Shown here piece by piece: positions 265 to 33,635 of a stretch of 64,000 bases of DNA. The DNA is taken from NCBI RefSeq assembly GCF_041248615.1, contig NZ_CP158426.1. One strand, given 5' to 3'. The notes under the pieces were generated by a model. It saw only the letters and a list, made by a program, of their open reading frames with translations. It was not told the DNA's origin and searched no databases. The stretch is from Escherichia coli. GTDB lineage: Bacteria > Pseudomonadota > Gammaproteobacteria > Enterobacterales > Enterobacteriaceae. Numbering within the stretch: the first letter of the stretch is position 1; every line of letters begins with the position of its first letter. The position numbers were made by a program, and so were the translations under genes.

Positions 265-284
265 CATGAATCTCCTGTGGATTT

Positions 285-3029: not shown

Positions 3030-3039
3030 AGATAACCTC

Positions 3040-3333
3040 TCAGCTCATCAGCAGTGCGCCGATTTCACTGCCTCCACCAATCAGGATGCCGCCAATGATG
3101 ATGTAGGCGCACTGGGACAGGCTTTCGCCTTTCCAGAGTGTCTTGTAACCTACCCAGATCACGGCCACGGTAATGGTGATGGCCGCCAGGCCATTAAGGC
3201 CGGTGGCGACTTTTTCCATCACGGTATTTGCGCGTTGAAAGCCATCGGCAAAAACCGGAGGTACAGAACAAACGATGAGTGCAAATGCGGAAACATGACT
3301 GAAAGCGGCCTTAAGTTTGCAGCAAAGTGTCAT
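3040..3333 (-). CDS. virB2: VirB2-like pilin
   Basis: 97-aa ORF with signal-like N-terminus and two hydrophobic segments, placed between virB1 and virB3/4. Confidence 0.55.
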   Translation of the reverse strand: MTLCCKLKAAFSHVSAFALIVCSVPPVFADGFQRANTVMEKVATGLNGLAAITITVAVIWVGYKTLWKGESLSQCAYIIIGGILIGGGSEIGALLMS

Positions 3334-4088
3334 TATTCTTTCTCCTCACGGGGTGACAGGGAGAGGCTCCGGCGCAATGACGGCGTAGAGATCTTTTCTA
3401 TGGCAATTTTCTTCTGGCGGAATTTTGAGGGGACGCCACGAACCACGCCCTTCGGCCAGATCACGCAGGGACGTAACTGGTCACCTGCAGGCGTAGGCTT
3501 CAGGAACGGCGGGGGTGTCAATTTATCCTCGTGGGTTCCGGGTACGGCATAGTGGGGAGCAGCAGCGTAACCGATTCGTTGCACATAGCTGGTTCCGGAA
3601 AAAGCCGCTTCCGGCTGTTCTCCGGTACGGAAATTGCCGGAGTAGTAGCAACTCAGTGCTCTTTTCAGCGAGCCGCCGCGTCGGTAACAGTCGTTGAGGA
3701 TGTGTTCGAAAACAGACAAATTGGTACAGGGATCAAGCAGCTCAGAGGCTGTCACACCGTAATGATGGAAATTGGTGCTGGTAATTTGCATCAGCCCCAC
3801 AGAATAACGGCGGCTCTGCGCCATAAGGCGACCTATGATTCGCTCGGCTCTTTCCCGGCTGGTGGGCTGATGAGAAATGATTTTATTGTGACCGAAGGTG
3901 CCTGAGCCCTTTGGGATAATTTCGGCGATCGCATAAGGGTTAAAATTGGACTCCACCCTTACGACGTCGAGTGCTGTGGACGGATGAATGCTGGTGGCAC
4001 ACTGCATGGCCACCGCCAGAAAGGCAGATGTGGAAAGCATAGTAGCCTCGGGAATGCGGGCAGCGTACATAGCCAAAGAACCATGCAT
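3333..4088 (-). CDS. virB1: VirB1-like lytic transglycosylase
   Basis: 251-aa ORF with SLT-type motifs (VESNFNPYA, GLMQI); first gene of the virB cluster; true start may be internal. Confidence 0.7.
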   Translation of the reverse strand: MHGSLAMYAARIPEATMLSTSAFLAVAMQCATSIHPSTALDVVRVESNFNPYAIAEIIPKGSGTFGHNKIISHQPTSRERAERIIGRLMAQSRRYSVGLMQITSTNFHHYGVTASELLDPCTNLSVFEHILNDCYRRGGSLKRALSCYYSGNFRTGEQPEAAFSGTSYVQRIGYAAAPHYAVPGTHEDKLTPPPFLKPTPAGDQLRPCVIWPKGVVRGVPSKFRQKKIAIEKISTPSLRRSLSLSPREEKE

Positions 4089-4677
4089 GCTGAGGGAAAC
4101 TTGAAGGGGTAATGTGTGGTTTCGAGATTGTGAGCACTTTGCGCCGGATTTCCGAAGCCATAATAAAGGGTTTCATGAGATATTCTTTACAGGGCTTTTG
4201 ATTCGGGTAAATGCGGCACTAATGTTTTTGAAGTAGATGTTTTATTTCAGCGTGTCTGTTGAAAATTCAAGACCGACAAAATGATGTCACTTGGTTTTAT
4301 CTGGATAGTCTCTAATCAAAATAATAATTAATGGGTCACATCCCAATTCTGCATTCCGATTTCAACGGGTCAGCGAGAACATTCAGCGGCACACTGAATT
4401 AAGGTTGTGTGATAGCCTGATATAAATTATTAAAGAACGGTGCTCGACCAGGCTGAATAAATGCCTAACTGTCAGGTCGATGAGCAGAAACACTATCAGG
4501 ATGGATTTAATTAATATAAATTGGAATGATAAAGTGAAAATGAAATGATAAGAGTTTTTCGGGGATGAATTTTAGTAGTGTAAGGGGAGGGGGATATAAT
4601 CGATGATTGTGTTTGTACTAATAGTGAAATATAAAGACGTGCGGGGTTTTAATTCCCTGCACGCCTTACTGTTAACA

Positions 4678-4887
4678 TTAGCGTTTACGTCGTTCAAGCA
4701 TTTCCTGGCATTCTCTACACGTTGTTACTCCTGGCAGAGTGTGCCTCCGCTTTTCAGGAATTGGTCTACCGCAGAACTGACAGTGATACAGGGAAGGTGT
4801 TGCTGCTGGTTTGAAACGGCTTTGTTCAATCATTTCCTCCAGACGTTGCTCATTGAATTCCTGGTCGCGATCAACTTCGTCAGGCAT
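4678..4887 (-). CDS. traR: TraR/DksA-family C4 zinc-finger protein
   Basis: Translation MPDEVDRDQEFNEQRLEEMIEQ...CQFCGRPIPEKRRHTLPGVTTCRECQ; CxxC...CxxC motif; start taken at the internal Met of the 88-aa ORF. Confidence 0.7.
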   Translation of the reverse strand: MPDEVDRDQEFNEQRLEEMIEQSRFKPAATPSLYHCQFCGRPIPEKRRHTLPGVTTCRECQEMLERRKR

Positions 4888-4888
4888 A

Positions 4889-5461
4889 TCATGTCCTCCT
4901 GTCTGTCCTTCCCTGCTCGCAAAATGTGATTCGGTTACACACAACAGTGAGTGAGGGGGGATTGGGCTCTGAGGCTAACTCTTCGGTGATCTGCATCATG
5001 ATGTTAATTGCTTCATTAGCATCAGGACTTTTCCCTTTTAACGCCTTCCATCGGCACCATATTGTGGCATCCATGGTTTCATCAGGAAGAGGTGAGCGTC
5101 CATACGGTACAGAGATGCCCTGTAATCTGCGGTTGAAACAGACATCGTTGGAAGTAAGACCAAAATAATGCTTTAGTAAGGCTATAGATCCACCTAACCG
5201 GATCGCCCGATTAATTTGCTGATGATGCTGGGTTTCAGTACGTGCTCTTTCCAGCTGTTTGCGTAAAATGTCATGGTGAATTTTGACTGTAATAAATGAT
5301 GCGGGAGAGTGGCAGATGTTCAATAATACATCAAGTGGTAACTGACTGATTTCGTTTATTTCTTCAAGAGTAAATCCAAGTGTTTCACCATAAGATAAGT
5401 CACCATCCTTCAATGCATAAATTACATCCGTGAGTACGTAATAATTCAGCAAGGGAAACAT
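4889..5461 (-). CDS. Hypothetical protein (element-associated)
   Basis: 190-aa ORF directly between alpA and traR on the same strand; no motif recognised. Confidence 0.4.
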   Translation of the reverse strand: MFPLLNYYVLTDVIYALKDGDLSYGETLGFTLEEINEISQLPLDVLLNICHSPASFITVKIHHDILRKQLERARTETQHHQQINRAIRLGGSIALLKHYFGLTSNDVCFNRRLQGISVPYGRSPLPDETMDATIWCRWKALKGKSPDANEAINIMMQITEELASEPNPPSLTVVCNRITFCEQGRTDRRT

Positions 5462-5478
5462 AAGTTATCTCTCTTATC

Positions 5479-5664
5479 TTAGCGGTTAGCTAATTTACAA
5501 TTAATCCATTCGTCAATCTCCGACTCGAGCCAGGCTACGCTGGCTGGGCCGATTTTTATTGAGAGTGGGAAACGCTTGTCTTTCATATACAGATAGATTT
5601 GTGAGCGTTTAAGACCTGTTTTTTGCTCGACCTGTCTGAGGCGTAATAATTGATGAGATGGCAT
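5479..5664 (-). CDS. alpA: AlpA-family transcriptional regulator / excisionase-like
   Basis: 61-aa ORF; LRLRQVEQKTGLKRSQIYLYMKDKRFP matches the AlpA HTH pattern as I recall it. Confidence 0.75.
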   Translation of the reverse strand: MPSHQLLRLRQVEQKTGLKRSQIYLYMKDKRFPLSIKIGPASVAWLESEIDEWINCKLANR

Positions 5665-5798
5665 TTGTTCCTCCAGGGGCTTATGGCATTGCTATCATAA
5701 AGGAACACAGAATGATGTTTAGATAAAGACAGTGAACCCGTATTACGACATTATTCACCCGTAATACGGATCTCAGAGCTATATACACGAAGGATGTA

Positions 5799-6752
5799 CT
5801 ACTTCACCGTAGTTTTAAACGATAAAGGGGAGCCACGCTCCAGCGCCGTTTTTAGCGTATCACCGCTGAGATGATCGGTGATACCATCAGAGATTGCCCA
5901 TTCCTCAAATATAGACAAGAGTTTGTAGGGTTGTTTCACCAGAGGGCGTATATCATCATTATGATAACAGGCTAGCCAGAACAGCCGGGATAAGGGCGTA
6001 GATATTCTCGTCGGAGATAACTTGGGGTTTTTGTCACTGGTTAGCTTTTCTATCAATCTCTCAATTTCAACACATTTGATAACGAAAAAAGCATCTTGTG
6101 GCAAGTCATGCATTGGGAAGTAGCATGGATCCGCATAGTCCCGCTTTTCATTCCGCAAGGAAGACTCTTTTATTATAGAGGTGGTTTCATTCGATAAGTA
6201 TTTTATCTTGCTCTGAATTTGTTCTTTCCATGATATTTTATTGAAAAGTAAGAAAAGTTCATTTCCACTCGTAACAGTGATGCCAAAATTAATGGTGTCA
6301 GGATTATCAATAGGTAGTGGCATGCTGAGCGAGTCTGCTAGATATCTTTGTATGATAATGTATTCAAATCCAAATAGGTTTGTGTCCAAAATATTCCTGC
6401 GAGATGAAAAGTAATCTCCTTCAGTAGATATGATAAGGTTCCTATTATTTTTGAAACAATGTTTATCAAGAAAGCAGAGTCTCTTTAGCTCTGAATTGTC
6501 CAAGGTAGATATTTTTACTTTTTCTCCATTTTTAGTTATTTTTCGTAATGTCACCGGAGACTGGAAGTAAATGGATAGATTGATTTGCCCATACAGTGCA
6601 CAGCGATATATTGTACTTTCTGTAATTGAAGTATCGAATGTCTCATTAATCACTTGCACAGCTTCGTGTATTGTTAACCAGTTTTTTGCCATAAGCTTGA
6701 GATTGCTATTCCAGGACATAAGTGATTTTCCTTCATTTATTTTCTTTGGCAA
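5799..6752 (-). CDS. Hypothetical protein, possible N-terminal HTH
   Basis: 317-aa ORF, AT-rich; N-terminus LTIHEAVQVINETFD...TIYRCA resembles an HTH; remainder unrecognised. Confidence 0.4.
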   Translation of the reverse strand: MPKKINEGKSLMSWNSNLKLMAKNWLTIHEAVQVINETFDTSITESTIYRCALYGQINLSIYFQSPVTLRKITKNGEKVKISTLDNSELKRLCFLDKHCFKNNRNLIISTEGDYFSSRRNILDTNLFGFEYIIIQRYLADSLSMPLPIDNPDTINFGITVTSGNELFLLFNKISWKEQIQSKIKYLSNETTSIIKESSLRNEKRDYADPCYFPMHDLPQDAFFVIKCVEIERLIEKLTSDKNPKLSPTRISTPLSRLFWLACYHNDDIRPLVKQPYKLLSIFEEWAISDGITDHLSGDTLKTALERGSPLSFKTTVK

Positions 6753-6987
6753 TTATCTGATGCCATAAGTTAATTGATTGCTATCAATGTGAGAAATACC
6801 TCAGCGTTTATAGACATGCGAGGTTCAGAAAAATAAATTATCTTATTGATATTTCTTCTTTATAGCTTGTAAGTGGTAGTCGCCAATGATGCAAGGGAAA
6901 GGGTCTTTATGGGCATATATCCTATCCGTTAATTTCAACCATGTTCTGTTGTCCAGAGTCAGAATACATCTAACTCTGGATACGTTT

Positions 6988-8037
6988 TCACCAGTGATAA
7001 CTTATCCCTGTATCAAGTTTATCTGCACAGTCAATCCCTGCAGGGCTATTTCTGACGTTATTAAATTTATAATCTAAAAATATCTGCATATTTTTGTTGA
7101 AGTAGTAGCTAAAGCCTATTTCTTCATAATCCAGCACTCGGGTTCGTTGGCCAGCGATTGTTTGCGTCAGGTGAGTGTAACCAATGTTGGGCTGAAATCT
7201 GTCGGTCAGCATATACTTAGCCAGGGCTTCATAGCTGAAGGAGTTGGTATTATTGTTGCGAGGTTGGGGGTTGATAGCATTATTACTCTGCGTGAAAACA
7301 GTGGCCAGATAAAGTTTTTTGCTCTGGTACTTGACCCCCTCTGCGAAAGTTCGAATATTTTTTTTGTAACCGGCATTTTGTTGCTGTGAAAATGTGGTCT
7401 CGGAAGATGACGCAGCAAAAATTGCACTGAGCTTTGGCGTAAAGAACCAGGACAGCGAAGTACCAATACCATTGCCGTTCTGTTGTCTTAAGGTACGATT
7501 CTCGTTGTTACTTTTGAACTGGTATTGCATCGCTAATTTCACTGTCTGTTGAAAGACCGAAAATTTTTTTCGCCACGTAATAAGATCAAGGGCTCGGCCA
7601 CGCATGAAGTTGTCAATGTAGTTATAGGACATTTCCCTGAATAAGGGAGAGCGGTCTGTTATTGAGGTAACGTCGTACAGTACCCCCCAGTTCCGACCGA
7701 TATCAAGGCTTCCCCAGTACGGGTTGTCTACACCCAGAAACGCTAGCCGGGTTGCATTTCTGCTGGCATCTGATGCACTAACCGTATATTCCCAATGAGC
7801 GTAGGTTTGCCAGTTGTGGGTAAGTTCATGCTTCCCAATCAACCCAAAATAGAGATAGCTACGATCGCCATCATCTTTTATGTTATTACTGGTAAAACGT
7901 CTCGCAATAATAGTGCCATAAAAATCGAGACTTTTACCGTCCTGGTTCAGAACGTTGACCGCAAAAGAGTAGGGTGAGAAGAGTAGTGTGATTGATATAA
8001 AATAATAGCGTAAGTAATGCAATGTCATGATAAACAT
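6988..8037 (-). CDS. Outer-membrane porin-like beta-barrel protein
   Basis: 349-aa ORF with signal peptide (LLFSPYSFA), alternating amphipathic strands rich in Y/G/N/T, aromatic C-terminus. Confidence 0.55.
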   Translation of the reverse strand: MFIMTLHYLRYYFISITLLFSPYSFAVNVLNQDGKSLDFYGTIIARRFTSNNIKDDGDRSYLYFGLIGKHELTHNWQTYAHWEYTVSASDASRNATRLAFLGVDNPYWGSLDIGRNWGVLYDVTSITDRSPLFREMSYNYIDNFMRGRALDLITWRKKFSVFQQTVKLAMQYQFKSNNENRTLRQQNGNGIGTSLSWFFTPKLSAIFAASSSETTFSQQQNAGYKKNIRTFAEGVKYQSKKLYLATVFTQSNNAINPQPRNNNTNSFSYEALAKYMLTDRFQPNIGYTHLTQTIAGQRTRVLDYEEIGFSYYFNKNMQIFLDYKFNNVRNSPAGIDCADKLDTGISYHW

Positions 8038-8133
8038 CCCTAAAGATGGCTCAGCATCTGAATGGTGGCAGGGTGGACAATTTACCGCGACATATGCTCA
8101 TTGCTTAAATCCAATGGAATGAGATTATTATCG

Positions 8134-8970
8134 TTATGCTGAAGCGTTTTGTTTATGGCTAAAATAACTGATGATGCCATTAGAAATGGCGGATGCAATT
8201 TTGTTGCGGAATGCTGTTGTGCCTAATAATTTCTCCTCCTGTGGGTTGGTGATAAAAGAGGTTTCAATCAGGACAGATGGGATATAGGGTGATTTAAGTA
8301 CGGCAAAAGCTGCCTGTTCTGTATGGTTTGAATGCATATGGTGGACAGGAGAAATATGGTGAACTATATGTGATCCCAGTAAAAGACTTTCCCTGATGGT
8401 TTCAGTCTGTTCAAGATCGAAGATGATTTTGTCGAGATACTTGTCTCTGTGAATGATTCGTTTTCCTGCAATATTATCAGCAGCATTCTCACTTTTAGAT
8501 AGATACCTTGCCATAGCGCTGCTGGCTCCCCGTGTTGAAAGTGCAAAAACGGAAGCGCCATGGGCTGCAGGACTTGCGAAACCATCGGCGTGAATGGACA
8601 TAAATAGATCGGCTTTGTGTGCGTGAGCAATCTGTACGCGATCGTATAGTGGAATAAATGTGTCATCCGATCGCGTCTGGAGTGCATTAATACCGTGGCT
8701 ATTGAGAATGGCTTTTATCTTAGAGGTAATATCCAGTACTACATGTTTTTCCAGCGATCCTTCACAACCCACTGCGCCGGAATCAATACCCCCGTGTCCA
8801 GGATCTAGCATTATCGTAAATTTGCTACGCCCATTTGTTGGGAGGGAGGAATGCTTATGACTTAGCTGAGGTCGCATATGTGCATATGTCAGCGGTATAG
8901 CCAGTGTATTGGCTGCGAGGGCCGCTAAACCAGTAAGAATAAGTTTTCGCCGGGTAATGTTGGTGTTCAA
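8134..8970 (-). CDS. N-acetylmuramoyl-L-alanine amidase (AmiA/AmiC-like)
   Basis: 278-aa ORF; Tat-like signal RRKLILTGLAALAA; amidase_3 motifs (DPGHGG, SIHADG, ETSFITN). Confidence 0.8.
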   Translation of the reverse strand: MNTNITRRKLILTGLAALAANTLAIPLTYAHMRPQLSHKHSSLPTNGRSKFTIMLDPGHGGIDSGAVGCEGSLEKHVVLDITSKIKAILNSHGINALQTRSDDTFIPLYDRVQIAHAHKADLFMSIHADGFASPAAHGASVFALSTRGASSAMARYLSKSENAADNIAGKRIIHRDKYLDKIIFDLEQTETIRESLLLGSHIVHHISPVHHMHSNHTEQAAFAVLKSPYIPSVLIETSFITNPQEEKLLGTTAFRNKIASAISNGIISYFSHKQNASA

Positions 8971-9412
8971 TGTTGACGCCTCATGCTGAATGATTTGTTA
9001 TGTTATAACGTTATGAATTATTTAAGGTCGAGGACTTGAATGTTATTTTTTGTTGCTTCGGGTTACTTAATATTAATCATTGGAAAATCACGAGGCTCCC
9101 AATGTATTGATAAATTGGATTTTTAATACCCATCACTACCTCTCATCGCTTGAATCATGATGACATCAGGCGTCCAGGTATGATCGTAATCTGCAAGAGC
9201 ACTGCTGATTAGCCTTTGTCCCATCTGTTTACTTTAAATCCTGAATTATCAAACAGGACAATGGAGTCCTGCTGGAAACATATTGATATAGATCCTTTCA
9301 AAAGATAATTATTCTCATTATTATTGGTTATGTTATAACGTAACAATTGAGGGTGTGCCGAGATTTAGAATGAGTCTATCCATTATTCGATGACTTATTC
9401 TGGGGAGGAATT

Positions 9413-10795
9413 ATGTCAACTGAACATATCAAAGAAGAAAAACTCAACATTGGTGCTGTGCTGGCTGTATCACTTAGTACAGTGATTGCGATGCTGGACA
9501 GCACTATCGCAAATGTTGCCTTACCTGTTATTGGCAAAGATTTTGCCGTCTCAGAAGCTGCATCCATCATGATAATCAATGCTTACCAGTTTGCTGTGGT
9601 CGCTTCATTGCTGGTATTCGCTGCATTGGGAGGCAAAATAGGTAACAAACGTATTTTTATTCTTGGAGTGATTTTTTTTGCGCTTTCCTCGTTAGGATGT
9701 GCACTTTCTGAAACACTGATGATGCTGACGGCTTTTCGCGTCATTCAGGGCTTTGGGGCTGCGGCCATTCTAAGTGTGAATGCGGTGTTGATTAAAGAGA
9801 TCTATCCTGCCCGGTTGTTAGGTCGTGGATTGGGGATTAATGTAATGGTGGTCTCTGTTTCCGCAGCGGCGGGCCCGTCAATTGCTTCAGCTATTATGTC
9901 AGTTGCGAACTGGAACTGGTTGTTTTCTATTAATGTACCGATCGCTTGTATTTCATTGCTGCTCTGTATTGTATCGTTCAAATCGACGCAACGTACCGAA
10001 AACCGGTTTGATAAAGCGGGTGCGTTGCTGGTTTTCCTGACGTTCGCTTCGTTTTCAACGATGATGCTGGGTCTGGCGAGGAACAACGTGTTAGACGTTA
10101 TCCCAAGCTCGATTATTCTTGTCGTGCTGGCAATCACTTTGTATCTGAATCAAAAAAGAAAGATTACTGATGCTTTGATCCCGGTTGCGATATTTCGCAA
10201 CAGGACATTTTCTCTGTCGTTATTAATGTCTTTGTTATCATATAGTACGCAGTTACTGGCATATGTCTCCTTACCATTTTATTTTCATAATGTATTAAAC
10301 CGCAATGTCGTTGAAATTGGCATGCTGTTAACGGCATGGCCGCTGGCGACAATGTTGACGTCATTGGTCGCGGGTGAACTAATCAAAAAGTTCGAGCCCA
10401 ACCTGGTAGCATTTACCGGACTATTACTACTTTTGATAGGCACTCTTTTAATGACATGGCTGCCCGTACAACCCTCGAATCTGCAGATCCTCTGGCGGAT
10501 CGCTATTTGTGGTTTTGGTTTTGGACTATTCCAGTCCCCTAATAATTTTCTCATTATGACTTCGGTCCCACATGAAAATAGCGGTATTGCCAGCGGATTA
10601 TTAGGCAGTTCACGTCTGATTGGGCAGATTATTGGTTCTGTGCTGGTGGCGTTTTTCTTTAATAACTTTGGGCGTAATGTAACAAATATTAGTCTTTTTG
10701 CCGGAGCATTGTTCTCATTTATGTCTCTGGCGGTGAGTTATCTCCGCTATAAATCTGCTTCTCATGACGTTGGTTTTGTTAAGAAAGTAATATAA
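9413..10795 (+). CDS. MFS transporter (drug:H+ antiporter-like)
   Basis: 460-aa ORF with about 14 hydrophobic segments and an MFS signature-like loop (GKIGNKR). Confidence 0.8.
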   Translation: MSTEHIKEEKLNIGAVLAVSLSTVIAMLDSTIANVALPVIGKDFAVSEAASIMIINAYQFAVVASLLVFAALGGKIGNKRIFILGVIFFALSSLGCALSETLMMLTAFRVIQGFGAAAILSVNAVLIKEIYPARLLGRGLGINVMVVSVSAAAGPSIASAIMSVANWNWLFSINVPIACISLLLCIVSFKSTQRTENRFDKAGALLVFLTFASFSTMMLGLARNNVLDVIPSSIILVVLAITLYLNQKRKITDALIPVAIFRNRTFSLSLLMSLLSYSTQLLAYVSLPFYFHNVLNRNVVEIGMLLTAWPLATMLTSLVAGELIKKFEPNLVAFTGLLLLLIGTLLMTWLPVQPSNLQILWRIAICGFGFGLFQSPNNFLIMTSVPHENSGIASGLLGSSRLIGQIIGSVLVAFFFNNFGRNVTNISLFAGALFSFMSLAVSYLRYKSASHDVGFVKKVI

Positions 10796-10854
10796 GTCTT
10801 TCAATAAAATAATCATGTGATGCTATTAAATTACAATTCATTTAACTCATTGAG

Positions 10855-11943
10855 GTGCTAAGTATGCTTAATGGAAAAATATTATTCTCATTATTCATAT
10901 CATCGATAATATTATTATCAACGGCAAGCTATGCCAATAGTAGTGAGGTGAGTAAGACGATAAATGACCAAAATATGAAAAATACTGAAGAAATACCCAT
11001 AAAATTCAACCGTATTATTATCACCGGCAATTGCCCCTTTGGTGTAATTATGGCAAATGATTTGGCATATAAACATGTTGTGGGCGTAGGACCTTGGGCT
11101 TTTCTGCATTCAAACATGAAACTTCTCAAGGATATGAAGCCAGATATCGACCGTATCACTACTGACTTTATTAATAAAGACTATGTTGTAAATATGGAAT
11201 CCTTACTAAATTTACAACCAGATATTATTTACTATTATGGTAAAAGTCAGAATGATAATCTGCAGCGGGCAGGGATCCCAACTATTAATCTTGATGCTGG
11301 TGGTGACACGAAATTTGAGCCAGTAGTAACGCAAACGTATTGGGAAAACGAATTTAACCAGACGCTTGGTTTACCTCACAGTCACAAATTTTCGGATGCA
11401 TGGAAGAGAAGCCTCAATGAGGCAAAACCATATGCCGAGAAGATCAAATCACAACATATTCGGGCATTATATCTTGAGCAGAGTGATGGGAAAGAGCTCA
11501 AGGTGAGTGGGCCGAAAACATATGGTGATACCTATCTTAAGATGGCGGGGATGGAAAATGTAGCAAGTGATCTGGTGGTAAAAGGGGATGCTGGCAGGTA
11601 CATTAATGTTTCAATGGAGCAAATAATTCAGTGGGATCCCGATGTTGTATTTGTGGTCTTTGGTAGCGCGAAGGATATTCTTAATAATAAAAATCCCGGG
11701 CAAGATTGGCATAATGTTAAAGCATTCAAAGATGGGAAAATATTTTCTACACCCGTAGGACTACATAATTGGGGAGGATTGTCTGCTGAGACTTCGCTAT
11801 TACCATTGTTTATGATTAATAAATTTAACCCTGACTATATAACAGATGCAGAATTGAAAGTTGCAACGCGGTTACACTATAAAAAAGTGTTTGATTATGA
11901 AATTCCGGACGCGCTATTAACCGATGAGTTAAGACAGCGGTAA
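10855..11943 (+). CDS. ABC importer substrate-binding protein (siderophore/heme/B12-type)
   Basis: 362-aa ORF with signal peptide, directly upstream of FecCD-type permease and ATPase genes. Confidence 0.7.
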   Translation: MLSMLNGKILFSLFISSIILLSTASYANSSEVSKTINDQNMKNTEEIPIKFNRIIITGNCPFGVIMANDLAYKHVVGVGPWAFLHSNMKLLKDMKPDIDRITTDFINKDYVVNMESLLNLQPDIIYYYGKSQNDNLQRAGIPTINLDAGGDTKFEPVVTQTYWENEFNQTLGLPHSHKFSDAWKRSLNEAKPYAEKIKSQHIRALYLEQSDGKELKVSGPKTYGDTYLKMAGMENVASDLVVKGDAGRYINVSMEQIIQWDPDVVFVVFGSAKDILNNKNPGQDWHNVKAFKDGKIFSTPVGLHNWGGLSAETSLLPLFMINKFNPDYITDAELKVATRLHYKKVFDYEIPDALLTDELRQR

Positions 11944-11986
11944 TAAAGTAATTCGGCGAATAGGTTTTTATTTTTAAAGGTTAGTT

Positions 11987-13000
11987 ATGCAGGAAAGACA
12001 AAAATACCGCATGCTGATGTGGATTTCAATCGTATTGTTACTGATTGTGGCTATGATTTCTTTGTTCATAGGTCGCTATACATTATCTATCCCCGAAATA
12101 ATGACGGAGGTATTACATGATAATGGTCACCGTTGTTTGAGCGCAGGATTCTCGGTTATATGCAATCTACGGTTGCCAAGGATTATTGCCGTCATGATGG
12201 TAGGGGCAGGGCTATCAGTAGCAGGCGTGACGTATCAAGCGGTGTTGCGAAATGCACTGGCTAGCCCGGATGTGCTCGGTACATCTTCCGCCGCAGCGTT
12301 CGGCGCAGCACTTGGGATACTGCTAGGTTTTCCACTACAACTCAGCGCTTTTTCCTCTTTCTTCTTTGGCATTGTCAGCCTTTTATGCGTGATGGGACTT
12401 TGCCATTTCAAGAAAAACAATGGGGAGCTCACGACTATCCTGTCGGGCATCATAGTGGCTTCGGTGTTTATGTCTTTTGTATCAATCATTAAATATGTTG
12501 CCGATCCACAGGACGAACTCCCGGCTATCGTCTTCTGGCTTATGGGGAGTTTCGCTTCTCTGGTCAAAGAGCAGGTTTATGGACTCATCCCGCTATACAT
12601 CATTTGTTATCTGGCTATTTACAAACTTCGATGGAAAATCAATGTGTTGTCTTTGGGAAATGATGAGGCCAAAATTGCTGGAATGAACCCACAATTGTTG
12701 AATACAGTTTTGCTAATCACAGCCTCAATTTTGGTGGCAGCATCAGTCACCATCGCTGGCGTGGTGGGCTGGGTTGGTCTGGTTATCCCGCATCTGGTTA
12801 GAACGCTGGTCGGGTACAACCATAGCAAGCTGATCCCGGCTTCGGCTGTATGTGGTGCGTTGTTTTTATTGGTCATCGACAACATTGCCAGGACCCTGAC
12901 TTACGCAGAGATCCCCATTGGAATACTTACTGCTCTGGTTGGTGCGCCTTTATTTGCTGTACTGTTCATCATGAGTAACCGATATGATCGAAGTGAATAA
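11987..13000 (+). CDS. ABC importer permease, FecCD/BtuC family
   Basis: 337-aa polytopic ORF with GWVGLVIPHLVR-type motif. Confidence 0.8.
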   Translation: MQERQKYRMLMWISIVLLLIVAMISLFIGRYTLSIPEIMTEVLHDNGHRCLSAGFSVICNLRLPRIIAVMMVGAGLSVAGVTYQAVLRNALASPDVLGTSSAAAFGAALGILLGFPLQLSAFSSFFFGIVSLLCVMGLCHFKKNNGELTTILSGIIVASVFMSFVSIIKYVADPQDELPAIVFWLMGSFASLVKEQVYGLIPLYIICYLAIYKLRWKINVLSLGNDEAKIAGMNPQLLNTVLLITASILVAASVTIAGVVGWVGLVIPHLVRTLVGYNHSKLIPASAVCGALFLLVIDNIARTLTYAEIPIGILTALVGAPLFAVLFIMSNRYDRSE

Positions 13001-13739
13001 TCTGACGTTCGCATTCAAAAAGAGTAAAACTGCCTTTAACAATATCAGCTTCTCCATTGATGAAGGTGAGGTACTGTGCGTATTAGGACCGAATGGTGTT
13101 GGCAAAACAACATTGCTTAAAACGGTTACCGGTCTGTATCAACCGGTTAGTGGCTCATGTCATATTGGCCGAGTGGGAAACCGGAAAGCTCGTATGGCGT
13201 ATGTCCCGCAGGCCAAACGTGTTCACTTTTCTTACAATGTACTCGATTTCATCTCCTTTGGGTGCCCATTACGGGGCGGAATGCTGGCATCTCCTGGGGC
13301 GAGGGACATCGAAAAAGCGGCGCGAATATTGTCGGGACTTGGCGCTTCATATCTTGCAACCAAAGACGTTAACCAGATAAGTGGAGGTGAACTACAGATG
13401 TGCTACATCGCGAAGGCGCTGGTCTCAGAGCCGGACATCCTTGTGCTTGATGAACCTGAATCAAATCTTGATTTTAATAATCAGTCTCTCATTATCAATT
13501 GGTTGCACACGTTGTCGCGAGAGAAAAAAGTTACTATTATCCTGAATACGCACTTCATCAATCATGCAAATAACATTGCAGATAAATGTTTGCTAATGGG
13601 AAAAGATAGTTACTGTTTTGGAACAACACAGAGTGTCTTACAAGAGTCTCTCCTCGCCGATTATTTCCATGTTCCCGTTAAACGCTGTCATTTTGAACAC
13701 AAAGGAATACAGAAAGAATCATTTATTGTTGCAGTGTGA
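12984..13739 (+). CDS. ABC importer ATP-binding protein
   Basis: Walker A GPNGVGKTT, signature LSGGELQM, Walker B LVLDEP; overlaps permease stop (coupled). Confidence 0.85.
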   Translation: MIEVNNLTFAFKKSKTAFNNISFSIDEGEVLCVLGPNGVGKTTLLKTVTGLYQPVSGSCHIGRVGNRKARMAYVPQAKRVHFSYNVLDFISFGCPLRGGMLASPGARDIEKAARILSGLGASYLATKDVNQISGGELQMCYIAKALVSEPDILVLDEPESNLDFNNQSLIINWLHTLSREKKVTIILNTHFINHANNIADKCLLMGKDSYCFGTTQSVLQESLLADYFHVPVKRCHFEHKGIQKESFIVAV

Positions 13740-13934
13740 TAGGTAGCCAATATCGCAGAGAAAATAAGAATTGAGGAATTGTTTATTGCGAAACCGTGCG
13801 AGTAGATGGTAATTCTGGTAGGAATATCATTTACGATTGATCAATTTTCCCACGGACTATATGCGATAAAATAACTTTGTCGATGCATGAAATAGCAGCT
13901 TCATTTTGTTAAAAGTAATAATAAAGGTGTAATT

Positions 13935-14552
13935 ATGATTAAAAAATTCGTTGAAGAATATCTTAATCAGATCTACATAAAAAAATACTCAATTATTACT
14001 ATTAATTCTCTTGATGAAGCTTCAATTATATCTAATATGCCTCATTGTTGGGAGCGTGATTTTCTGAAAAGAGAGCTGCATCTTCGAAGTGATATTGTAT
14101 TGAAAGCTAGAAGTAAAATAACCCCCTTCAAATGGTCTTCTGTAAATGGTAATAATGAAGATCTTAAGGCTTTATCCAATAGGTATAATATTAGCAATGG
14201 GGTGACTTTTGTTATAAAAATAAAACATGATGTCGTGATCTTCACGATGTACTACAATGAGGATGATGAGGATTTCATAAGATACTACTCTAGAAAGAAA
14301 CATAAAATATTGTATGATGTTATGAGTCTTTTTGAATCCCATTATGAACAAACACCCAAACATGTATTCACTGTACGAGAAAAGGAAGTTATGAATTTGC
14401 TGAAGTTTGGAAAAACTTATATTGAAATAGCATTTATTCTTGGTGTAAGTGAAAGGACCGTCAGATTTCATATCAATAATATTCTTGATAAATTGAATGT
14501 GACATCAGTTCGTTATGCGATCTTTAAAGCAGCTTCCGAAGGTTTGATCTGA
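13935..14552 (+). CDS. LuxR-family transcriptional regulator
   Basis: 205-aa ORF; C-terminal LuxR HTH (REKEVMNLLKFGKTYIEIAFILGVSERTVRFHINNILDKLN); AT-rich N-terminal domain. Confidence 0.7.
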   Translation: MIKKFVEEYLNQIYIKKYSIITINSLDEASIISNMPHCWERDFLKRELHLRSDIVLKARSKITPFKWSSVNGNNEDLKALSNRYNISNGVTFVIKIKHDVVIFTMYYNEDDEDFIRYYSRKKHKILYDVMSLFESHYEQTPKHVFTVREKEVMNLLKFGKTYIEIAFILGVSERTVRFHINNILDKLNVTSVRYAIFKAASEGLI

Positions 14553-14883
14553 CAAGGTTTTCCTTGTCAGATCATCTATCAATGACGATAGAATTCTGAA
14601 AGGCGTAATCTCAAGCCATCGGTATCAAATCCATGCGCCCGAATGTGTTCTTCTGGGGTCCAAAATTGTCTGAGCTCCTTTGGTTTTGCACCAATGGACA
14701 AGATTCTGTGAGGTATATCGGACAATGCCTCACCTATAGCATGAATTGTCGTTCCTTCTAGGTATGGTTAACCTAGCCGGTTTATTACTACATGTCGTGG
14801 CAACTCCAGCGGAGTACATAATAGTCCATTCAGCATTGTTACTTTTTGTGAACTAGACTGGAAAAGAACTGGGTCAAATCACA

Positions 14884-16188
14884 TTAAATGAAGATACGTA
14901 GGCCGACCGCCGCCAGATGATCTGATACATTATATGACGCATCAGTGTTACCGCTTGCTTTCTCATAACCGTATTCAATATAGGTCACTGCGTTTTTCCC
15001 CAGCCAGTAATCGGTACCCAGCGTGGTGGACTGGAAGTGTTGACCGTCCATCGCATCACCGCCTTCGGTCCAGTCAAAGTTGGCATAGACGCTCCACTCA
15101 GGGGTAATTTTGAACTGTGAGGCATATTCCAGACCCAGAATCGTTTCTTGGTCGTTAGTCTGTTTGCTGGCGCCGCTGGTTGCTGCCTGAACGTCATCAA
15201 CTTTGTTGATATAGTAAGTCGCTTGCGCGCCGTTATACCAGGTGAAACTATCAAAGCTGGTTGTGTACTTAGCGTTCATCCCCATCGAATAGGTATTACC
15301 GTCATATGAAGGGCCGGTCACCGTTGTAACTGGAACAGTACCACCGTGCGGACCTATGGGCACATCCGTGGTTATGGTACCCTGATTGACAGAATAGTTG
15401 TTATAAGCTGCCGTACCGGAAAGTGAGAAACCATTATCGAAGCGATATTGTGCTGCTAACGCAGCGCCGCCGTGAACAGTCGCGGAACCATCGTGGTACG
15501 CATCATGCATATCCGGTCCGTTGCCGTAACCGCTGCCAAAACCAATTTTATCGACATCGTCATTCCCTTGGCCCATTACACCCACCGTGAAGGCCTTGGT
15601 GTTGTAATAATAAATAACAGCCGAGTTAATAATATCGGTCGACATACCAGTGGTATCATGTTTGGCTTTGCCACCGTATGCATAGGTGGTATCAATTCCC
15701 AGCCCCCAGTCGGTTGGGGAATATTGCTTACCGAAAGTCACCACCCCATATTCATCATTACCTATCCCCGCATACGCCTGACGGGTATAAACATCGTTAC
15801 CCTGATTATCAGTTGCGGAATCCAGACCGTGTATGCCAGTTTCATAATAACCTGCTGCGTAATAGCCTTTGTCATTAATATTGTGTCGTAGTGCGACACC
15901 CAGACGTGAGTCGTTGTTTTGTATATTATGTTCTACACTGTGCGCTGAATCGTTCTTTGCCATGAGACGTAAGGATCCCATAACTGAAATGGCTGTATCA
16001 TCATTTTGATAAATCATCTCCCCCTTGGTCTGTGTAGCAGTATATGCTGGAGCCGTATGTTCCCCGCTACTCACCTGTGCACAGGCAGGTGCGACTATTG
16101 CTGCAGTAATAAGCGGAGCAACAATAAATGGTTTAAGTCTTATATATTTTACGTGCATAGAAACCCCATGATCATTGTTTAAGTTCAT
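14884..16188 (-). CDS. Outer-membrane beta-barrel protein (porin-like)
   Basis: 434-aa ORF, likely start at internal MHVKYIRLKPF (16158); signal peptide, G/Y/T-rich strands, C-terminal ...GLRIFI. Confidence 0.5.
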   Translation of the reverse strand: MNLNNDHGVSMHVKYIRLKPFIVAPLITAAIVAPACAQVSSGEHTAPAYTATQTKGEMIYQNDDTAISVMGSLRLMAKNDSAHSVEHNIQNNDSRLGVALRHNINDKGYYAAGYYETGIHGLDSATDNQGNDVYTRQAYAGIGNDEYGVVTFGKQYSPTDWGLGIDTTYAYGGKAKHDTTGMSTDIINSAVIYYYNTKAFTVGVMGQGNDDVDKIGFGSGYGNGPDMHDAYHDGSATVHGGAALAAQYRFDNGFSLSGTAAYNNYSVNQGTITTDVPIGPHGGTVPVTTVTGPSYDGNTYSMGMNAKYTTSFDSFTWYNGAQATYYINKVDDVQAATSGASKQTNDQETILGLEYASQFKITPEWSVYANFDWTEGGDAMDGQHFQSTTLGTDYWLGKNAVTYIEYGYEKASGNTDASYNVSDHLAAVGLRIFI

Positions 16189-16370
16189 TTTTAGAGTGTT
16201 TTTTAAATATGGAGAGTCTATTAAAAGCTTTTGAATATAAAATAAAACTGTCAGTTCTGACAGGAGTGTTTTTTATTTTCAATTAAATTATTAAGCATTT
16301 TTTCGGAGATGTGGGTTTTTTACACGGTATTAGCGAAACGGTTTGCCATGTAGTTTGGACAAAGTAAAAA

Positions 16371-16400
16371 GCCGCATCAGTCTGCACTGATGCGGCTTTG
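16371..16400. terminator. Hairpin terminator downstream of island integrase
   Basis: Perfect 11-bp stem GCCGCATCAGT/ACTGATGCGGC with 4-nt loop, flanked by A-run and T-run. Confidence 0.55.
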
Positions 16401-16422
16401 ATTTGTCAGGGTGACTAAATCA

Positions 16423-17694
16423 CTAGCCAGCTTGAAGCGTCGTTTTTCCTCTCCCCAGTATGTAGGGCGGTACATAGGATTTGCGGCAAGTATCCAGATA
16501 ATCCGACCACCACTGCATCATTGCCTTTCTTGCTTCCAGATGCTCTGCTCTGTGAATATATGCCTGGCGTACGGAGTTACGTTCCTGGTGGCTCATTTGC
16601 CGTTCAACAGCATCCTGTGACCATATACTGGATTCCATAAGGGCACTGCATGCCATTGTCCTGAAACCGTGACCACAGATTTCCATTTTCGTATCCCAGC
16701 CCATCAGGCGTAGCGCCTTGTTCACCGTATTTTCACACATGGGTTTATACGGATTATGGTCCCCGGGGAACACGAGTGCATTATCTCCTGAGATATCCTT
16801 AATCTTTTTCAAGATCGCGATCGACTGTTGTGAGAGGGGTACGATATGAGGCCTGCGCATTTTGGCACCACGACCAGAGTAACGCACGCCTTCAATAGCT
16901 TCGCGCGTGGCGGGTATTGTCCAGACCTGGTTTCCGAAATCAATTTCATGCCAGCGGGCAAAACGCAATTCACTCGAGCGAATGAACAGATGCAGTGTTA
17001 GCAGGATGGCAAGGCGAGTGAGTTCACGGCACTGCTGAAAACTCTCAATGCTCTCAAGCAGTTCTGGAAGACGCTCCAGTGGTAGAGCGGGGTAGTGTCG
17101 TTTTACTGGTGGAGCCGTCACTCCGTCAAGGTTTGCTGCCGGATTAAAATCGATTAATCCATGATGCACGGCGTAGCGCATGATATTCCGGAGGTGCTGG
17201 CGTGTACGGGATGCAACTTCCAGGAGACCCTTTTCCTCAATTCCTTTTAATAAAGTGATGAAATGGCGGGGTTTCAGTTCTGAAACTGACATGGTGCCAA
17301 TGACTGGGAAGATATGATTATTCATGCTGGCGAGCAAACGGTCGGCGGTGTTCTCTGACCATTTTTTATTGCTCTTGTGCCATGCAAGTGCAACGTTTCT
17401 AAACACTTTCTTTGGCATGCGAGAACTGCGTTCGGCTGCTCGCTGCTCTGCTGGATTGATGTTCAGTACCAGCATTTTGCGAATACCTTCACGTTGACTA
17501 CGGGCGTCTGAGAGGGAGATGACTGGGTAGGCACCGAGTGCAATACGTGATTCTTTACCCTTAATACGGTACTTGAGATACCAGTGACGTGAACCGCCAG
17601 GTTTGACCAAGAGATACAGACCGTGGGAATCGGAAACTTTAAAGGGTTTATCAGATGGTTTGAGACTGCGGATTTTGGTGTCGGTAAGAGACAT
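16423..17694 (-). CDS. Tyrosine integrase, P4/CP4-57 type
   Basis: 423-aa ORF; N-terminus MSLTDTKIRSLKPSDKPFKVSDSHGLYLLVKPGGSRHWYLKYR is typical of P4-like integrases; adjacent to tRNA 3' end. Confidence 0.9.
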   Translation of the reverse strand: MSLTDTKIRSLKPSDKPFKVSDSHGLYLLVKPGGSRHWYLKYRIKGKESRIALGAYPVISLSDARSQREGIRKMLVLNINPAEQRAAERSSRMPKKVFRNVALAWHKSNKKWSENTADRLLASMNNHIFPVIGTMSVSELKPRHFITLLKGIEEKGLLEVASRTRQHLRNIMRYAVHHGLIDFNPAANLDGVTAPPVKRHYPALPLERLPELLESIESFQQCRELTRLAILLTLHLFIRSSELRFARWHEIDFGNQVWTIPATREAIEGVRYSGRGAKMRRPHIVPLSQQSIAILKKIKDISGDNALVFPGDHNPYKPMCENTVNKALRLMGWDTKMEICGHGFRTMACSALMESSIWSQDAVERQMSHQERNSVRQAYIHRAEHLEARKAMMQWWSDYLDTCRKSYVPPYILGRGKTTLQAG

Positions 17695-17855
17695 ATGGGG
17701 TCACTCCATAATAGAACGAACCGGACCCCAGATTTGACCACCAATTTTTCCCGATGCGGAGGATAAAATCAAAATGCATCAGGAGAAGTTTTCACGCTAA
17801 GCTGTTGTATTAAAACCATAGAGGCATTAATGAATGCTGCACGAAAACAAGAATT

Positions 17856-17931
17856 TGGCTCCTCTGACTGGACTCGAACCAGTGACATACGGATTAACAG
17901 TCCGCCGTTCTACCGACTGAACTACAGAGGA
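17856..17931 (-). tRNA. tRNA-Asn (anticodon GTT)
   Basis: Reverse complement reads TCCTCTGTAGTTCAGTCGGTAGAACGGCGGACTGTTAATCCG...GGTTCGAGTCCAGTCAGAGGAGCCA; 76 nt cloverleaf. Confidence 0.9.
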
Positions 17932-18922: not shown

Positions 18923-19012
18923 GGAGAGATGCCGGAGCGGCTGAACGGACCGGTCTCGAAAACCGGAGTGGGGGCAACTCCACCGGGGGTTCAAATCCCC
19001 CTCTCTCCGCCA
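18923..19012 (+). tRNA. serU: tRNA-Ser (anticodon CGA), serU-like; 3' half is attL
   Basis: GGAGAGATGCCGGAGCGGCTGAACGGACCGGTCTCGAAAACC...GGGGGTTCAAATCCCCCTCTCTCCGCCA; long variable arm; 90 nt. Confidence 0.9.
18951..19012 (+). repeat. attL (3' portion of tRNA-Ser)
   Basis: 62 bp matching 60161-60222 with two substitutions. Confidence 0.8.
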
Positions 19013-33295: not shown

Positions 33296-33401
33296 GTGCC
33301 ACTTATCTCGGATAGACATGGTGAATGCGCTAGTGGAGGAGATAAGGGTGATTTTTGAATGCTTGCAACATTGATTTCGTAACGTTATTATCCTGCGCCC
33401 G

Positions 33402-33477
33402 GCCCTTTAGCTCAGTGGTGAGAGCGAGCGACTCATAATCGCCAGGTCGCTGGTTCAAATCCAGCAAGGGCCACCAG
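33402..33477 (+). tRNA. tRNA with CAT anticodon (Met or Ile2, ileZ-like)
   Basis: GGCCCTTTAGCTCAGTGGTGAGAGC...CTCATAATCGC...GGTTCAAATCCAGCAAGGGCCACCA. Confidence 0.8.
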
Positions 33478-33478
33478 C

Positions 33479-33555: not shown

Positions 33556-33556
33556 T

Positions 33557-33633
<77 letters not shown>

Positions 33634-33635
33634 AT

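Follow-up and report, generated by a model that had tools for sequence, protein, structure and literature searches.

We think it probable that the luxR-type gene at positions 13935–14552 (plus strand) of the 64-kb stretch of Escherichia coli DNA analyzed here (the window) encodes a receptor whose family is paired with an AfsA-type biosynthetic operon and with a lux-box-like operator, that a 5.8-kb deletion has removed this operon from the window, and that the palindrome at the end of the gene is an RNA hairpin. The parts of this explanation that concern the ligand, DNA binding, and activation draw on the genetic neighborhood and on an analogy to LuxR and TraR.

The receptor and its ligand pocket

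The gene is an ATG-initiated open reading frame of 205 codons plus a stop codon, and its product (RefSeq WP_192459702.1) carries the label "helix-turn-helix transcriptional regulator." As an earlier, sequence-only reading had noted, the gene is AT-rich (30.9% GC, compared with 47.9% across the window) and ends in a LuxR helix-turn-helix: PF00196, the GerE/LuxR domain, matches residues 144–196 (14364–14522, plus strand) with an E value of 2.6e-15, and the C-termini of SdiA, LasR, and RhlR align with it. Residues E149 and G159 of this domain, which occupy the positions of E178 and G188 of TraR, are invariant in the family, and the position of TraR L182 corresponds to position 153, where M, L, I, or A is found. 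A Pfam search for a TetR_N domain in the receptor gave no match, the helix-turn-helix being C-terminal and of the GerE type. Among public assemblies, 62 index blocks contain the exact protein, which is a member of a small, uncharacterized LuxR subfamily of about 205 amino acids.

The same reading had held that the N-terminal domain (residues 1 to about 140; 13935–14354, plus strand) does not obviously resemble either a receiver domain or an autoinducer-binding domain. The first half of this view stands: we found no match to Response_reg, the NCBIfam response-regulator models cover only residues 135–205 of the receptor, and, the fold matches being AHL receptors, we set aside a receiver domain as well as other folds for the N-terminus. 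The second half does not. The Pfam autoinducer-binding model (PF03472, Autoind_bind) matches residues 22–109 with a score of 23.6 bits, which exceeds the gathering threshold of 23.0 by just 0.6 bits, and phmmer aligned residues 2–114 with the ligand-binding domain of YenR (5l07; E 2e-9) and residues 31–204 with QscR (3szt; E 2.2e-9). Hundreds of LuxR proteins of 230–250 amino acids align with the receptor over its full length. The AF2 model (pLDDT 87.9) has five strands with flanking helices in an alpha-beta-alpha fold, and a Foldseek search with this model returned AHL-type LuxR receptors as all of its top 50 matches (best E 7.6e-13), the highest among them being QscR, SdiA, LasR, RhlR, TraR, CviR, or YenR. 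The domain search and structure prediction that had been proposed for the N-terminus therefore point to a standard autoinducer-binding fold.

What is not standard is the pocket. Ligand-binding domains of the LuxR type have six conserved residues, W57, Y61, D70, P71, W85, and G113 in TraR numbering. Mapped through the QscR alignment, three of the six are kept in the receptor (W39, W67, and G89), and the tyrosine, aspartate, and proline are replaced by F43, S52, and D53, respectively. The pocket residues are M35, W39, F43, S52, D53, W67, and G89, and five of these (W39, F43, S52, W67, and G89) are invariant among 25 family members. Relative to QscR, Y58 has become M35 or L35, Y66 has become F43, and D75 has become S52 in every member of the family. 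The W/F/S pattern extends to representatives at 39–44% identity, whereas the next-nearest ordinary LuxR proteins have W/Y/DP. Judged from sequence, this residue pattern argues against binding of AHL by the receptor. The idea of a non-standard AHL sensor thus survives in part: the residues that would hold the amide are replaced family-wide, but the fold itself is standard.

The afsA operon, the box, and the deletion

Adjoining luxR in 10 independent lineages, and in all relatives whose locus is complete, is an operon of the composition afsA–ACP–KAS–HAD–transporter(–transketolase). The lineages are E. coli A38, the Klebsiella type, Salmonella, Serratia fonticola, Bisgaard taxon 10/6 (Pasteurellaceae), Citrobacter braakii, Klebsiella aerogenes, the C. 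freundii complex, P0045, and P0046. The gene and the operon are convergent in nine of the ten, and in P0046 the operon lies upstream of luxR on the same strand. The loci are found in both ICE and non-ICE settings, in at least five unrelated genomic contexts, and joint travel of luxR and the operon through unrelated contexts is characteristic of a receptor and its synthase. The AfsA of the operon matches PF03756 (E 2.7e-24) and, over its full length, the ScbA/BarX model (E 3.8e-32); meanwhile, a LuxI-type synthase gene (PF00765) is absent from the window annotation and from all related loci examined. The operon is predicted from its gene content to be an enzyme set for a molecule of the butenolide or gamma-butyrolactone type, in which the HAD hydrolase presumably carries out a dephosphorylation, as in the MmfP step. 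It has no reductase, and it has a split transketolase that lacks an explanation. When species-representative genomes were scanned with the family alignment, using back-translated patterns derived from the helix-turn-helix, no family members were recovered, only distant LuxR-HTH proteins in MAGs. A tblastn search of the PLSDB plasmids at E ≤ 1e-20 gave no match to the module, which therefore appears to be chromosomal or ICE-borne. In the window, the tyrosine integrase gene of the ICE that carries the module is at 16423–17694 (minus strand, RefSeq annotation), a tRNA-Asn is at 17856–17931, and genes for a T4SS, AlpA, and DUF2857 lie upstream both here and in related loci.

The lux box of the luxI promoter is a 16-bp CTG-N10-CAG palindrome centered at about −42.5. 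A lux-box-like palindrome of the same geometry, CTGTCAGAACTGACAG (16248–16263, minus strand), is the sole exact match to CTGTCA-N4-TGACAG in the window, for which the chance expectation is about 0.004 per 64 kb (64,000 positions/4^12), and we predict it to be the operator of the receptor. A −10-like hexamer, TTTAAT (16220–16225, minus strand), lies 22 nt downstream of the box and would thereby place the center of the box at about −42.5. In all related loci, afsA (or the first gene) is preceded by the motif with at most one mismatch, and a box-anchored comparison found the −10-like hexamer 22–24 nt past the box in 13 of 14 promoters. The box in the window precedes a porin gene of 424 amino acids (14884–16158, minus strand; RefSeq annotation, with a weak Porin_1 match) whose promoter shares homology with that of afsA. 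Because no other gene in the window has the family box in front of it, the porin gene is the predicted remaining target of the receptor. Matches to the box with two mismatches (at 22835, 22999, 30588, 30895, 46108, and 58637) lie in prophage or core genes and were taken as chance, and no box or autoregulatory site was found 5′ of luxR at up to two mismatches.

By analogy with known receptors, the protein would bind a lactone made by the AfsA pathway and, in its lactone-bound form, would dimerize on the lux-box-like site and activate transcription. Activation of the afsA operon would create an autoinduction loop, which is predicted because the box belongs to the promoter of the synthase operon. 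In the ICE lineage of the window, the receptor would also switch on the porin gene, whose promoter is a duplicate of that of afsA.

The biosynthetic operon for a putative non-LuxI signal that adjoins luxR in all 10 related lineages is not in the window, where it has been deleted. Compared with an E. coli A38-like element, the window lacks 5.8 kb (L002 9170–14992), comprising two transketolase genes, the MFS, HAD, KAS, and ACP genes, afsA, and the afsA promoter box. What is left is the receptor, an intact porin box, and a stub consisting of the last 62 codons and the stop codon of a transketolase C-terminal subunit (14579–14769, minus strand), which is 87% identical to residues 248–309 of the E. 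coli A38 protein. The stub is the leftover of the final gene in the lost operon, and the DNA alignment stops at its edge, 14769. Blastn break points and junction sequences place the deletion junction at 14769/14770, and since microhomology there is just 1 nt (T), the junction looks like the product of illegitimate recombination. The symmetry seen at the junction (GGTTAACC/CTAGGT...ACCTAG) was dismissed as a product of the join. The same junction is present in five further contigs (L056–L060), which represent at least two chromosomal sites and include K. aerogenes, and all five have an intact porin box and promoter, with no mismatches. Thus, the window gene is a receptor without a synthase because the deletion took the whole operon together with its box.

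Among the luxR genes of the window, E. coli A38, and the Klebsiella type, dN/dS is 0.13–0.16, and the receptor protein has therefore been under purifying selection. Within the deletion lineage, seven of nine substitutions are non-synonymous and two are synonymous. The corresponding dN/dS of 0.87, an excess over an omega of 0.14 with p of about 0.01 by a binomial estimate, hints that the orphan receptor may have escaped selection. Either the receptor in the window eavesdrops on signal from bacteria in which the element is complete, or it is a relic in decay.

The palindrome at the stop codon and alternative explanations

The sequence-only reading had also pointed to a perfect palindrome, CTGACAAGG-TTTT-CCTTGTCAG, immediately after the gene at 14553–14574. 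The inverted repeat is indeed perfect and does lie at the 3′ end of the gene, but this core is located at 14549–14570 and, rather than following the gene, overlaps its TGA stop codon (14550–14552). The full element, TGATCTGACAAGG-TTTT-CCTTGTCAGATCA (14545–14574), has arms of 13 nt each (14545–14557 and 14562–14574) that are 100% complementary. It is unique in the 64 kb, where zero matches are expected by chance, and occupies the 26-nt gap between the luxR stop codon and the convergent stop codon of the transketolase stub (14579–14581). A 66-nt plus-strand stretch (14535–14600) that includes the stem and a second, small hairpin has a folding energy of −27.2 kcal/mol (z −5.1), and the 66-nt minus-strand stretch 14590–14525 has one of −22.9 kcal/mol (z −4.8). 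The remark that the palindrome lacks a clean T-run was correct on either strand: no U-tract follows the stem (the sequence is TCTATCAAT on the plus strand and AACCTTCGG on the minus strand), no A-tract precedes it, and a terminator scan makes no call.

Like the intrinsic or bidirectional terminators found between convergent genes, the palindrome is a stable, G+C-rich stem-loop within a very short gap, and it differs from intrinsic terminators in having neither a downstream U-tract nor an upstream A-tract and in including the stop codon in its stem. Unlike the luxR hairpin, the nearby integrase gene has a textbook terminator with a T-run (16368–16399). Lacking a U-tract, the palindrome is no plain intrinsic terminator, and intrinsic termination is not established. 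It is clade-specific, as family members of 59% identity or less do not have it; at its position the Bisgaard taxon has an unrelated 12-bp hairpin between the convergent genes. A search of Rfam at E ≤ 1 over 13400–16500 returned only a meaningless miRNA match, which puts the hairpin outside known RNA families. Most likely, the palindrome is an RNA hairpin in the gap where luxR and the transketolase gene converge, rather than the operator of the receptor. Such a hairpin would act at the RNA level, in forming or protecting the 3′ end or in blocking read-through from the opposite strand.

The proposal that the palindrome is instead a protein-binding site holds insofar as the missing U-tract speaks against a plain terminator, but an operator for the receptor or another dimeric regulator seems to us quite unlikely. 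The perfect 13-bp arms, their uniqueness, the lack of a U-tract, and two GATC (Dam) sites within the arms would fit an operator, and the CTGACA...TGTCAG of the arms is similar to the half-sites CTGTCA/TGACAG in the family box, so that the palindrome may be a weak secondary binding site. Yet its CTG-N16-CAG geometry sets the half-sites more than half a helical turn further apart than the CTG-N10-CAG of the box. In favor of an operator, the outer arms (GATCTGAC/GTCAGATC) are retained down to 72% protein identity, a conservation inflated in appearance by the partial coding constraint on the 5′ arm (…GLI-stop), which is coding sequence and stop codon. In C. braakii and K. aerogenes, which keep the outer arms, the inner stem has changed without losing its pairing, and the arms are spaced at 12 or 13 nt, as suits an RNA stem and not a fixed dimer site. 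Moreover, the site lies at the 3′ ends of the convergent luxR and transketolase genes rather than in a promoter, and unrelated sequence takes its place in the Salmonella, C. freundii, Serratia, Bisgaard, and P0045/P0046 loci, each of them with its box retained. The element kept family-wide is that different, lux-box-like palindrome.

Even less probable, in our estimation, is that the receptor is an AHL-sensing solo like SdiA that detects the AHLs of other species, the afsA operon being an unrelated neighbor or a mere target. It shares its fold with SdiA, QscR, and LasR and conserves W39, W67, and G89, and an AHL receptor governing afsA genes would have a precedent, since the AHL system of Chromobacterium up-regulates an AfsA/HAD gene cluster (PMC12114271). 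Against these points, the aspartate that bonds the amide is serine in every member, both tyrosines that contact the amide and acyl groups are replaced (by M or L and by F), no locus examined has luxI, and luxR travels with the operon through at least five unrelated contexts. More plausible, though still unlikely, is that the window receptor is a functionless relic, left with no ligand or role by the loss of the operon and persisting because the deletion is recent. The deletion of operon and box and the raised dN/dS of its lineage would fit, as would truncated versions of 125–142 amino acids in E. coli and Salmonella (P0030 and P0040–P0042) and a K. aerogenes contig (L060) with no called porin gene; but the receptor frame is intact, the identical protein recurs across the 62 index blocks in contigs with differing chromosomal flanks, the porin box and promoter are unchanged in all five deletion contigs, and in other LuxR systems a receptor that stands alone, a "solo," is both common and functional (reviewed in PMC10134790).

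Relation to known systems and significance

On the reading we prefer, that of a receptor paired with an AfsA-type operon, the protein shares with the canonical AHL receptors (LuxR, TraR, LasR, QscR, SdiA, and YenR) its two-domain architecture and fold, the two tryptophans and the glycine of the pocket, the glutamate and glycine of the helix-turn-helix, and a predicted operator with the geometry and position of a lux box. It is about 35 amino acids shorter than these receptors, has serine for the amide-binding aspartate, and has M/L and F for two tyrosines. Unlike in LuxI/LuxR pairs, the partner in its relatives is an AfsA-type operon, and the window has no synthase at all. A parallel is offered by the "class C" LuxR solos of Photorhabdus, PluR/PpyS and PauR/DarABC, in which an adjoining non-LuxI locus makes the presumed ligand, an endogenous non-AHL signal, and which likewise combine a substituted WYDPWG motif with such a locus (PMC10134790). 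The motif is W-F-S-x-W-G here but TYDQCS and TYDQYI there; the chemistry is that of AfsA, ACP, KAS, and HAD rather than of a ketosynthase-derived pyrone or dialkylresorcinol; the synthase operon has a box, and autoinduction is predicted, whereas PluR and PauR have no autoinduction (PMC10134790); and the luxR–afsA module is ICE-carried in Enterobacteriaceae.

The actinomycete A-factor/gamma-butyrolactone systems (AfsA/ScbA with ArpA/ScbR) are similar in that the synthase is a full-length AfsA/ScbA homolog, a HAD-type hydrolase is present, and receptor and synthase genes are neighbors. They differ in that the receptor here is of the LuxR type and not of the TetR family of ArpA and ScbR, that the operon has a dedicated ACP, a KAS II, and a split transketolase but no reductase of the BprA/ScbB type, and that the hosts are Gram-negative. 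AfsA homologs are known in Proteobacteria, in a Ruegeria killing cluster, in Pseudomonas styrolide production, and in a quorum-sensing-regulated cluster of Chromobacterium (PMC12114271 for the last). A dedicated LuxR-type receptor paired with AfsA is not described in the literature open to full-text search, outside of which lie subscription-only papers.

For the question raised by the sequence-only reading, the answer is a sobering one, namely a standard fold and a palindrome that is probably an RNA hairpin. The wider possibility, which we put forward tentatively and at slightly less than even likelihood, is that this LuxR clade and the afsA operon constitute a hybrid form of quorum sensing new to the searchable literature, in which an AfsA-type lactone of the Streptomyces style would be joined to a Gram-negative LuxR receptor, a lux-type box, and positive feedback, and which ICEs would have spread among E. 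coli, Klebsiella, Citrobacter, and Salmonella. Under this scenario, the window would hold a natural receptor-only variant, spread to several hosts, that could hear producers and turn on the porin without the cost of synthesis.

E. coli and Salmonella are, to our knowledge, textbook non-makers of a LuxR-type signal, with SdiA as their only, eavesdropping receptor. If the hybrid system exists, a second LuxR-type receptor, one with its own non-AHL synthase and a lux-type operator, would alter this SdiA-only picture; its spread by conjugative elements would give cell–cell signaling in enteric bacteria a new chemical channel; and it would be a third, chemically distinct case in which LuxR receptors have been retuned to non-AHL ligands of endogenous origin. 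The luxR–afsA module would also offer synthetic biology a compact, orthogonal set of receptor, promoter, and synthase. Finally, the deletion variant in the window is a natural experiment on the fate of a receptor after the loss of its synthase.

The receptor and its ligand pocket

The luxR gene is an ATG-initiated open reading frame on the + strand (13935-14552, from the ORF list) whose 205-residue product, WP_192459702.1, is named helix-turn-helix transcriptional regulator in RefSeq. The sequence-only reading had pointed to AT-rich sequence and a LuxR-type helix-turn-helix (HTH), and both points hold: G+C content of the gene is 30.9% as against 47.9% for the whole window, and Pfam matches GerE to residues 144-196 (E 2.6e-15). 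The N-terminal domain, which that reading did not recognize, is a standard autoinducer-binding fold. Pfam assigns residues 22-109 to Autoind_bind (PF03472; 23.6 bits, gathering threshold 23.0), the ligand-binding domain of YenR (5l07) aligns with residues 2-114 (E 2e-9), and QscR (3szt) aligns with residues 31-204 (E 2.2e-9). An exhaustive HMMER search returned a tight family of about 205-212 amino acids and then hundreds of ordinary 230-250-residue LuxR proteins, which align end to end with the receptor at 28-35% identity. An AlphaFold2 model built from 25 family members (mean pLDDT 87.9) combines a helix-flanked, five-stranded sheet with an HTH of four helices, and its top Foldseek matches in the PDB are all AHL-type receptors (QscR, SdiA, LasR, RhlR, TraR, CviR, and YenR; E 7.6e-13 to 1e-7). 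Domain search and structure prediction, two of the checks that had been proposed, both returned a recognizable domain. There is no receiver domain, response-regulator models matching the HTH only. By architecture the protein is a LuxR-family signal receptor, and it would work like the family. The ribosome-binding site and start codon of luxR fall within an imperfect inverted repeat (13928-13977) with 22-nt arms that are 77% complementary; the repeat might influence how translation starts or might be a by-product of AT-rich sequence.

Pocket residues were mapped through the QscR and family alignments. W62, W90, and the conserved Gly of QscR correspond to W39, W67, and G89, all invariant in the family; Y66 and D75 are replaced by the equally invariant F43 and S52, Y58 by M35 (M or L in the family), and P76 by D53 (D, N, E, G, or H). 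The W/F/S pattern persists in representatives at 39-44% identity, whereas the next-nearest conventional LuxRs have W/Y/DP. LasR, TraR, and QscR have the AHL amide bound to the Asp and the first Tyr, and the lactone carbonyl bound to the first Trp. Since Asp and Tyr are replaced and the first Trp is invariant, the lactone-binding residue has been kept and the amide-binding residues lost. The receptor departs from the conserved pocket of the LuxR family, and on these substitutions its pocket is probably not an AHL pocket; we infer that the ligand is a lactone without an amide.

The afsA operon and its lux-type box

In every readable related locus luxR adjoins genes for AfsA, an acyl carrier protein (ACP), β-ketoacyl-ACP synthase II (KAS), a HAD-type hydrolase, and an MFS or DMT transporter, and in most a split transketolase ends this operon. 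Gene and operon are convergent in nine of ten lineages; at one distant locus (P0046) the operon lies upstream of luxR on the same strand. Identity to the window protein is 91% for the Klebsiella-type ICE, 75% for Citrobacter braakii, 72% for K. aerogenes, 63% for Bisgaard taxon 10/6, 59% for Salmonella enterica, 57% for the C. freundii complex, 50% for Serratia fonticola, and 44% and 43% for the distant loci P0045 and P0046; the receptor of E. coli A38, which carries the complete reference element, differs at 21 of 205 residues (DNA identity 89.8%). The surroundings are either VirB-type ICEs beside P4-type integrases or unrelated chromosomal neighborhoods, and only luxR and the operon form a constant pair. 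The AfsA homologue matches PF03756 (E 2.7e-24) and, over its full length, the ScbA/BarX γ-butyrolactone model (E 3.8e-32, under the curated cut-off). The receptor has no LuxI partner; genomic context suggests that its likely ligand is the product of the afsA operon.

Window positions 1-17931 belong to an integrative conjugative element, with VirB-type T4SS genes (to about 4040), a P4-type integrase (16423-17694) beside tRNA-Asn (17856-17931), TraR/DksA, DUF2857, and AlpA genes, two porins, and amiA. Directly upstream of luxR lie an MFS transporter gene and a Peripla_BP_2/FecCD/ABC-ATPase operon (9413-13739); these are restricted to the E. coli/Klebsiella ICE lineage and, being absent from the Salmonella, C. 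braakii, and K. aerogenes elements, are cargo rather than core module. Beyond the element, a lambdoid prophage (approximately 19040-58600) adjoins tRNA-Ser (18923-19012). Its integrase is frameshifted; it also carries hokD, dicB/ydfABC-type genes, and a tRNA block of its own (Ile, Lys, Thr, Gly; about 33401-33710), the four tRNA genes lying downstream of the Q antiterminator.

Every lineage has the palindrome CTGTCA-N4-TGACAG, with no more than one mismatch, ahead of afsA (in the incomplete contig P0049, upstream of the first visible gene). A -10-like hexamer, TTTAAT in the enterobacterial ICE clade, follows 22-24 nt past the box in 13 of 14 sites, and no -35 element is evident in the box promoters compared. 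This spacing would put the palindrome center at about -42.5 to -44.5, as reckoned from the hexamer. Class II lux boxes have this geometry. The E. coli and Klebsiella ICE lineage has a second, homologous promoter copy before the porin gene beside the integrase. The window's porin gene (14884-16158, - strand) retains it, with the only exact match to the box in the window (16248-16263, - strand) and TTTAAT at 16220-16225 (- strand). The box is a predicted conserved operator of the receptor, and the porin gene its predicted target. All mechanistic steps that go further than sequence, fold, synteny, and conserved motifs are ones that we infer.

The palindrome at the luxR stop codon

A separate palindrome, CTGACAAGG-TTTT-CCTTGTCAG (14549-14570), extends to perfect 13-nt arms at 14545-14557 and 14562-14574. 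The sequence-only reading had rightly detected it but placed it four bases too high (14553-14574) and after the gene; it overlaps the TGA stop (14550-14552) and fills the 26-nt gap between the luxR and transketolase stops. A search allowing three mismatches finds no second copy in the 64 kb (none expected by chance). Predicted folding is strong on the + strand (14535-14600, 66 nt; -27.2 kcal/mol, z -5.1, a value to which another small hairpin, over the transketolase stop, contributes) and on the - strand (14590-14525, 66 nt; -22.9 kcal/mol, z -4.8). Each outer arm contains a GATC (Dam) site (14546-14549 and 14570-14573, 24 bp apart).

As had been noted, a clean T-run is missing: none follows on either strand, and a terminator scan makes no call. 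In contrast, a textbook intrinsic terminator just downstream of the integrase gene (16368-16399, - strand) has a 14-bp perfect stem and then a T-run. The palindrome is not a plain intrinsic terminator. The alternative that had been raised, a protein-binding site, is probably not correct either. The loop is altered in A38 and the Klebsiella-type element has one A·C mismatch; C. braakii and K. aerogenes retain the outer arms GATCTGAC / GTCAGATC around different yet pairing inner stems, with an arm spacing of 13 versus 12. Unrelated sequence occupies the position in Salmonella, C. freundii, Serratia, and P0045/P0046, and in the Bisgaard taxon the position is taken by a 12-bp hairpin unrelated to this one. 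The pattern is clade-specific, admits changes as long as pairing persists, and accommodates a different spacing; the site lies between convergent genes, and the palindrome conserved throughout the family is another one, located in promoters. A stem-loop, of RNA or DNA, that influences transcript ends or read-through fits these features better than an operator. Such a stem-loop might protect 3' ends, form a Rho-assisted end, or block antisense read-through. No terminator was called in the window between the porin gene and the hairpin; speculatively, porin read-through would meet the stem before running antisense into luxR.

Loss of the operon and fate of the receptor

Relative to E. coli A38 the window has lost 5.8 kb: position 14769 abuts sequence immediately 3' of the porin gene (A38 locus positions 9169 | 14993), removing both transketolase genes bar the last 62 codons, the MFS, HAD, KAS, ACP, and afsA genes, and the afsA box. 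The transketolase stub (14579-14769) is 87% identical to the C-terminus of the A38 protein, and microhomology at the junction is only 1 nt. Joining the two ends gave rise to a small inverted repeat, CTAGGT-ATGGTTA-ACCTAG (14758-14776; GGTTAACC at the join). This repeat is flagged by the terminator scan (+ strand) and is a chance product of the deletion, not an ancestral element.

The sequence of E. coli NRZ14408 (NZ_LT599825.1) is identical to the window, and among 5,426 complete genomes of E. coli only five have the stretch; an index of public assemblies contains the identical receptor protein in 62 blocks. Junction, palindrome, and box are identical in five further contigs, one from K. aerogenes, with at least two different chromosomal flanks. 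The same junction on different flanks indicates that one deletion variant has spread with the element. Gene calls on the K. aerogenes contig (DATTCU010000020.1, 10619-12487) include no porin in the interval from luxR to the integrase, where the sequence matches the window at 98% identity and the box is intact; the porin may be disrupted. Among the window, A38, and the Klebsiella-type locus, pairwise dN/dS of luxR is 0.13-0.16. Within the deletion lineage two synonymous and seven non-synonymous differences give 0.87, small numbers that suggest relaxed constraint on the gene. E. coli O7:H7 and Salmonella have annotated shortened receptors of 125-142 amino acids that contain the HTH (P0030, P0040-P0042), which suggests that the module has decayed independently more than once.

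The receptor finds its closest analogues in the class C solos PluR/PpyS and PauR/DarABC (PMC10134790). AfsA homologues of Proteobacteria have been noted before: they have been surveyed taxonomically (PMC8209734) and described in a Ruegeria killing cluster (PMC7426152), behind the Pseudomonas styrolides (PMC7154651), and in an AHL-regulated Chromobacterium AfsA/HAD cluster (PMC12114271). The openly searchable literature yielded no account of an AfsA operon with a dedicated LuxR-type receptor as its partner. The window's receptor is an orphan of a putative LuxR/AfsA signaling module on enterobacterial ICEs that is apparently undescribed, and the window still holds a predicted operator and target.
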